The notes under the pieces: model-generated | What the model was told of the DNA's origin: nothing | Seen by the model: only the letters and a program-made list of their open reading frames with translations | Database searches by the model: none | Shown here: one piece after another, positions 59,939 to 61,311 of the stretch | How positions within the stretch are numbered: position 1 is the stretch's first letter | Layout: each line of letters begins with the position of its first letter | Origin: Escherichia coli | GTDB lineage: Bacteria; Pseudomonadota; Gammaproteobacteria; Enterobacterales; Enterobacteriaceae | Length of the DNA: 64,000 nucleotides | Assembly (NCBI RefSeq): GCF_029227855.1 | Contig: NZ_CP074356.1 | Strand: one strand, 5' to 3' | Made by a program: the position numbers and the translations under genes

Positions 59939-61311
59939 CCTTGTGGGTCCTTACGCGTAATATTGACCGGAAGCCAGAGGGTGAACGTTGAGCCTTTTCC
60001 CTCCTGGCTTGCGACCTGAATTGTACCACCGTGTTGTTCAACAATATTATGCACGACCGCCAGCCCCAATCCGGTGCCTTCGGCTTTGGTGGTGAAGTAC
60101 GGAGTGAAGATGGCTTCAAGCTGATCTGCCGCAATTCCCTTACCGCTGTCGGTAACGCTGATTTTCACGCCCGCGCCGCTTTCGCTGACCGTCACGCTAA
60201 TCACGCCATGCTGACCAATCGCCTGAATAGCATTGAGATAGAGATTCAACAGGACCTGAGTCAGCCTGTCCGGATCGGCCTGAATTTCCGGTAATGTGTC
60301 GTTGGCGGTAAAGCGTAACTGGATCTCCCGGCTGTTTGCATCCTGGCTTACCAGCTGTAATGAGTGGTTAATCAGCGTGTTGAGATCCACCGCCTGCAAA
60401 GCCAGATGCGTTGGCTTAACCAGTTCCAGCAACTCGCTTACCACGCGGTTTAAACGGTCGGCTTCTTTCGCCATCACCTGCGCCAATTGATGCGCTTCTC
60501 CCCCTGCTGGCGCGCGTTCGGCAAAGTATTTCGCCAGCCCTTTAATTGAGGAAAGTGGATTACGGATTTCGTGGGCAACGCCTGCCGCAAGATGCCCCAG
60601 CGCCACCAGCTTCTCTTTGCGCTTCATTTCATCTTGTAGAAGCTAGCGCGAGCGCAGATAGCGGCGATACCAGAAGAATGACAATACGCTTGCCAGCAAG
60701 ACCGTCGCCAGGGCGAAGAGGATAATCAGGGTGTTTCTCTGCTCACGATCTTCGGCACTCACAATATTACTGGCGTCGAAAGCGATGAAAATTGCTTGTG
60801 GTGTTGCGGCATACTGCTGCATATGGCGCATCCGGTGCATTCCAGCAGCAAACATCGGTTGAAACTGGCGATAAATTTCCAGAACAGGCTCGCCGTCTGC
60901 GCTATCGATCCGCCGCCACGCTTCTTCATCTCCAGGATGTAACTGCTGCATTTCCTGCGGGGAATAAAGCTGTTTTCCCACCATGCCGGAGTTGCTATGC
61001 ATCACGATTGTTCCTTGTTCATCCGTGACCGCAAACCAACGTACTCCAGGCTGCCCGGCCATTTCTTCCAGTAAGGCCTGCTGCTGCGCATGATGCATGC
61101 GCATCCCCATGCCGACGCGCGAGCCGGATTCAAGAGCGCGAATAAGTACACTGCCTTTTTCCAGCAGCGTTTGTCTGGCGGCGGCAGTCTCGCGCCCATA
61201 ATCGCGAATCACCGTCACCGCAAACAACCCTACCAGCCCAACAATGACCACGGGGAGGATCGCGCTTAACCATTTAGCTAAGGAGTCTTTAGAACGTTGC
61301 ATAAAACGCAT
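59935..61311 (-). pseudogene. zraS: Sensor histidine kinase ZraS interrupted by an in-frame amber codon (TAG at 60643-60645)
   Basis: N-terminal ORF 60643..61311 (sensor region ending ...YRRYLRSR) and C-terminal ORF 59935..60627 (MKRKEKLVALGHLAAGVAHEIRNPL..., HisKA/HATPase) share one frame, separated only by TAG followed by LLQDE. Confidence 0.8.

Follow-up and report, generated by a model that had tools for sequence, protein, structure and literature searches.

The gene for the sensor kinase ZraS is interrupted by an in-frame amber codon in the stretch of Escherichia coli DNA analysed here (contig NZ_CP074356.1; 64,000 nucleotides, hereafter the window), which raises the question whether the strain carries a genuine loss-of-function allele, a gene that depends on readthrough, or an intact gene with a sequencing error. 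Upon zinc or envelope stress, the kinase ZraS activates ZraR, a sigma-54 enhancer-binding protein that in turn drives the divergent sigma-54 promoters of zraP and zraSR (PMC4987338). ZraP exerts negative feedback on ZraS, and deletion of zraS leads to higher basal colanic acid (PMC12604771).

The interrupted zraS frame and its neighbourhood

The minus strand reads CGC TCG CGC TAG CTT CTA CAA GAT GAA ATG AAG at the site, the mutated base being plus-strand coordinate 60645 and the base after TAG being C. Translation of positions 59935-61311 as a single frame gave a protein of 458 codons whose sole internal stop lies at codon 223. The open reading frames of 222 and 230 amino acids at either side share this frame and are separated by the stop and five codons (LLQDE). 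The features of the locus are as follows.

58613..59938, minus strand: zraR, sigma-54-dependent response regulator, intact, 441 aa, 100% identical to that of strain EC23-1020
59935..61311, minus strand: the whole zraS frame, 458 codons plus stop with one interruption, 1 nt from WP_001211921.1
59935..60627, minus strand: C-terminal ORF, 230 aa from Met229, with PF00512 HisKA and PF02518 HATPase_c
60643..60645, minus strand: in-frame amber TAG, zraS codon 223, ancestral codon CAG (Gln)
60643..61311, minus strand: N-terminal fragment ORF, 222 aa, with transmembrane segment 1 (TM1), periplasmic sensor domain, TM2 and 9 cytoplasmic residues
61344..61358, minus strand: putative sigma-54 -24/-12-like element TGGCATGATTTCTGC upstream of zraS, from a pattern match, the same in close relatives
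61410..61455, no strand: perfect 17-bp inverted repeat GAGTAAAAATGACTCGC ... GCGAGTCATTTTTACTC between the two putative promoters, from the sequence
61498..61512, plus strand: putative sigma-54 -24/-12-like element TGGCACGGAAGATGC upstream of zraP, from a pattern match
61549..61980, plus strand: zraP, periplasmic chaperone/repressor of the system, divergently transcribed and intact, by projection from EC23-1020

Megablast searches of 5,426 complete RefSeq E. coli genomes matched zraS followed by zraR in 5,420 of them, and the best matches to the zraS stretch showed 99.9% identity, that is, one mismatch. Alignment with the intact allele of strain 120899 (WP_001211921.1, 458 aa) revealed that 1376 of 1377 nucleotides were identical and that the sole change was C667T, which converts codon 223 from CAG to TAG. 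The intact allele is carried by strains such as 120899, EC23-1020, VCSW8 and NCTC9088, from which the window differs in zraS by C667T alone; in EC23-1020 the flanking zraR and zraP are also identical to those of the window. In K-12 MG1655 zraS (HydH, b4003) the corresponding codon is CAG, Gln230 of a 465-aa ZraS, and the local DNA is otherwise identical. The K-12 locus has the same arrangement and synteny (yjaH-zraP / zraS-zraR-purD-purH), and in the window zraS is likewise found with a divergent zraP, an overlapping downstream zraR and the flanks yjaH/hupA and purD/purH, as in an orthologous locus. The split frame is a specific point difference in a well-conserved gene and no chance pattern.

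The C-terminal half of ZraS showed 99% identity between the window and K-12, and the N-terminal 222 amino acids only 74% with a 7-residue indel, so that E. coli has two forms of the periplasmic sensor domain, a 458-aa type as in the window and a 465-aa type as in K-12 (60646-61311 versus L028:2427-3095). By megablast, coverage of the window-type zraS stays below 80% in about 970 of the 5,420 genomes, which is consistent with a second allele class. Old recombination may account for this dimorphism, or diversifying selection acting on the sensor.

Hydropathy analysis placed transmembrane segments at residues ~15-35 and ~194-213 of the N-terminal fragment, which gave a weak precomputed Pfam match to PF17203 sCache_3_2 and ends, after TM2, in a tail of 9 cytoplasmic residues (YRRYLRSR-stop). 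The phospho-accepting histidine is residue 247 in AHEIRNP, 18 residues after Met229, so the stop follows the first 9 cytoplasmic residues and falls within the linker that connects TM2 to the H-box. In a class I sensor histidine kinase the sensor and transmembrane region is joined covalently to HisKA (H-box) and HATPase_c; here both of these domains are intact, but the TAG parts TM2 from His247. On NCBIfam NF007688 (ZraS, 460 positions; curated cutoff 479 bits) the N-terminal fragment matched positions 1-224 with 380 bits, below the cutoff, and the C-terminal fragment positions 231-459 with 479 bits; the profile match is split in two and no single polypeptide matches it at full length. The DNA is zraS, but its product is an incomplete ZraS. 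The preliminary description had reported an in-frame amber splitting zraS, explained by one C-to-T change in a CAG (Gln) codon, with the sensor and transmembrane region in the upstream 222 codons and the HisKA and HATPase part downstream in the same frame. It is borne out by the ORF listing, by the intact allele and K-12, and by the hydropathy, Pfam and NF007688 matches.

The remainder of the system is undamaged. ZraR is complete on NF007689 (994 bits, positions 1-441 of 441); its start overlaps with the stop of zraS in ATGA and is preceded by a Shine-Dalgarno (SD) sequence of its own, UAAGGA. zraR, zraP, both sigma-54-like elements and the 17-bp repeat are all intact and the same as in close relatives. 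The repeat at 61410..61455 is presumably the ZraR enhancer site reported by Leonhartsberger et al. in 2001.

Frequency and recurrence of the stop at codon 223

An 81-mer centred on the TAG had no exact match among the 5,419 complete genomes that contain the stretch, the best match being 80/81. Since other local haplotypes might mask TAG in this search, 31-mers of three local haplotypes that seed only across the TAG were also used, and these had no match in the set of 5,426 complete genomes. With CAG substituted for TAG, the 31-mer found 2,592 genomes at 100% identity, which indicates that the search method works. In a degenerate pattern scan of metagenome contigs, TAG was found in none and CAG in 37. 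Wherever the position could be scored in other genomes, codon 223 was a sense CAG; the stop is premature with respect to the intact orthologues, derived, and absent from close relatives, as in a nonsense pseudogene. A literature search for zraS nonsense or pseudogene alleles retrieved nothing relevant.

Exact look-up of the 222-aa product returned 26 contigs. Base-level inspection led us to reject most of them as carriers of the TAG allele, for they end at or beside the site with the wild-type C; such matches are misleading because an exact-product query selects truncations at contig edges. A real TAG-223 followed by the downstream 230-aa ORF was found in two contigs of the Logan assemblies of raw reads, L002 (SRR34009846) and L003 (SRR21919882, the contig being present in two further samples). 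Their divergence from the window over 7.4 kb is 1.2% and 3.2%, respectively, and neither is an assembly of the same strain. The bases around the TAG are different in L003 (CGG TAG CTA TTG CAG), so that a recombination tract common to both is excluded and the event is independent. The 230-aa C-terminal fragment was found on 42 contigs, and none of the ten inspected carried TAG-223: they comprised scaffolds with N gaps (L014-L021), an error-ridden assembly with 1-nt deletions (L012), and L013, with a stop at codon 214. The latter (GCA_001285845.1, CYBY01000044.1, positions 9521-10693; contig in at least two samples) is a different natural disruption of zraS, in which the gene aligns at positions 205-1377 only.

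As a control, the truncated products expected from stops elsewhere in zraS, at ten CAG, CAA or TGG codons, were looked up. All ten were present, in 2-48 contigs each, a range that brackets the 26 of the 222-aa product, and true internal stops were confirmed in L066 and L067 (codon 172; at least 12 samples) and in L069 (codon 275; one sample). As in the window, these nonsense alleles (codons 172, 275 and 214, and 223 in L002 and L003) have a single stop that separates a sensor from a catalytic fragment and leaves zraR intact; they lie at different positions and/or in different strain backgrounds and are therefore independent events. The occurrence of zraS nonsense alleles at many codons suggests that the gene is dispensable enough for sporadic loss.

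The presence of the same TAG on three haplotypes (the window, L002 and L003) could be taken to mean that codon 223 is a mutational hotspot or that truncation there is positively selected. This idea was dropped after the ten-site control and is barely credible, given that all ten control truncations are also in the collection, that real stops exist at codons 172 and 275, that most of the 222-aa matches are contig edges, and that the allele is missing from the complete genomes. Codon 223 is not a Dcm site either: deamination of Dcm 5-methylcytosine was considered as the cause and rejected, as the context is GCGC-CAG-CT and not CCWGG. The recurrence of TAG-223 appears, from these collections, to reflect database depth, codon 223 being unexceptional.

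Origin of the stop and activity of the split gene

We assign a probability of about 80% to the reading that a recent C-to-T mutation private to this strain made Gln223 an amber codon and turned zraS into a nonsense pseudogene. Among the three possibilities raised in the preliminary description, a genuine loss-of-function allele is best supported, and dependence on readthrough found no support.

The strain background bears on the possibility of a sequencing error. EC23-1020 and VCSW8 are nearly identical to the window, whose best complete-genome match over 24 kb was 99.8%. Projection of 46 coding sequences of EC23-1020 (NZ_CP168214.1), the closest complete genome, onto the window revealed no indels; most of them were 100% identical, and zraS alone gained a new internal stop. 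Relative to EC23-1020, VCSW8 and NCTC9088, and outside a recombinant patch (33.6-37.3 kb) and the rrn operon, the window has four private single-nucleotide differences, all of them transitions: malE V63I (14913), aceK L394P (43791), aceB A367T (47089) and zraS Q223*. All four change the protein, and no private silent or intergenic difference was found outside the patch and the rrn operon. In this small sample, the all-transition pattern would fit a few very recent, unpurged mutations in a clean assembly.

An error in base calling or assembly, with the strain truly carrying CAG and an intact zraS, is in our judgement an unlikely source of the TAG. Such an error would explain why the TAG occurs in none of the 5,426 complete genomes, not even in EC23-1020 and VCSW8 with their near-identical sequence, and why all four private substitutions are protein-changing, with none silent or intergenic, as random errors might be. 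However, 46 projected genes without an indel do not speak for an assembly that is error-prone in the usual way, and a spectrum consisting only of transitions fits real mutations better than it fits unbiased substitution errors. The site also lies outside the Dcm (CCWGG) and Dam (GATC) motifs behind systematic nanopore miscalls, and the identical mutation occurs in independent assemblies and hence is biologically tolerated. On these sequence comparisons a substitution error seems a less likely reading than a real mutation.

It is improbable that zraS, although split, still works, either by readthrough of the amber codon (through a suppressor tRNA encoded elsewhere in the genome or near-cognate Gln) or as a zinc-independent soluble kinase made from Met229. 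Near-cognate decoding of UAG in E. coli can yield Gln (PMC4333366), so that the wild-type amino acid would be restored, and terminating E. coli ribosomes can reinitiate nearby (PMC2268962); the ATG of Met229 is in frame, 15 nt downstream of the TAG and ahead of the phospho-accepting histidine. Against this, UAG readthrough is low in wild-type E. coli (PMC10570021), the sole tRNA in the 64-kb window is tRNA-Glu(UUC), and no recoding signal was seen. The stop is not conserved, as would be expected of a recoded or readthrough gene: neither the 5,426 complete genomes nor the scanned metagenome contigs had it. The ATG of Met229 has no SD sequence, the anti-SD duplex calculated for it (-0.7 kcal/mol) being far weaker than those at the native start of zraS (-5.4) and at zraR (-5.8). 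The allele is fixed in no sampled lineage of complete genomes, and TAG-223 is no commoner than the control nonsense alleles, so nothing indicates maintenance by selection.

Two precedents also touch on activity of the split gene. Poole et al. reportedly described in 1995 that a C after the stop, as found here, is a weak termination context, which would favour readthrough. Miller and colleagues are said to have obtained, in the 1970s, lacI amber mutants with internal restart fragments. The likeness lies in a Gln codon changed from CAG to TAG and followed, after a short distance, by an ATG in frame; the zraS site is no Dcm (CCAGG) hotspot, and restart in zraS would be a possibility in principle. 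A further extension, that restart at Met229 gives a soluble kinase uncoupled from the sensor, blind to zinc and possibly activating ZraR constitutively, and that truncations recur because they confer a niche advantage, for example in the control of envelope stress or colanic acid, is very improbable.

Under the preferred reading of a real nonsense mutation, translation would stop 9 residues past TM2 and yield a membrane-anchored periplasmic sensor stub without the dimerisation and phosphotransfer (HisKA) and ATP-binding (HATPase_c) domains. As no ribosome-binding site precedes its first ATG (Met229), the downstream kinase core would be poorly made; traces of it might at most arise by termination-reinitiation, or traces of full-length ZraS by near-cognate insertion of Gln at the UAG. 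Without the kinase, ZraR would remain unphosphorylated upon zinc or envelope stress, leaving zraP and zraSR uninduced, and the ~690 nt of untranslated message may reduce zraR expression through polarity. These consequences for expression and signalling are what we infer from the position of the stop, a zinc-blind and uninduced Zra system being the most likely of them.

The allele is an ordinary nonsense mutation in the known gene zraS and represents no new mechanism or biological feature. If the base call is right, the strain is without ZraS kinase and zinc should fail to induce zraP and zraSR; it may then also show traits of zraS deletion mutants, for example a higher basal level of colanic acid (PMC12604771). 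For genome annotation, zraS should be flagged as a pseudogene with an internal stop, which is relevant to any use of this strain in work on metal or envelope stress.

Other features of the window

Comparison with the close relatives revealed several further differences along the window. An insertion of ~700 bp at 9908-10608, between a SopA-family pseudogene and malM, is absent from EC23-1020 and VCSW8 and contains an ORF (10014-10520, minus strand) for an IS200/IS605-family transposase (NF033573, 147 bits). The SopA-family gene itself (8152-9732, minus strand) has three internal stops and is identical to the pseudogene of EC23-1020; in relatives this gene is annotated as frameshifted. Between iclR and aceK, a gene for a ShET2/EspL2-family type III effector (41692-43266, plus strand) is intact in the window with 524 aa; in the relatives this gene carries an internal stop (EC23-1020 and VCSW8) or a frameshift (NCTC9088).

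The recombinant patch at ~33600-37300, which comprises rluF, yjbB and the 3' end of metH, showed ~60 single-nucleotide differences from the otherwise near-identical relatives. In yjbB 27 differences were counted, of which 0 change the protein; since all are silent, the patch is suggested to be an imported segment. In the 23S rRNA gene of the rrn operon, 7 differences from all three close relatives are clustered within 11 nt (51480-51490), probably owing to copy-to-copy heterogeneity of the rRNA operons or to gene conversion.
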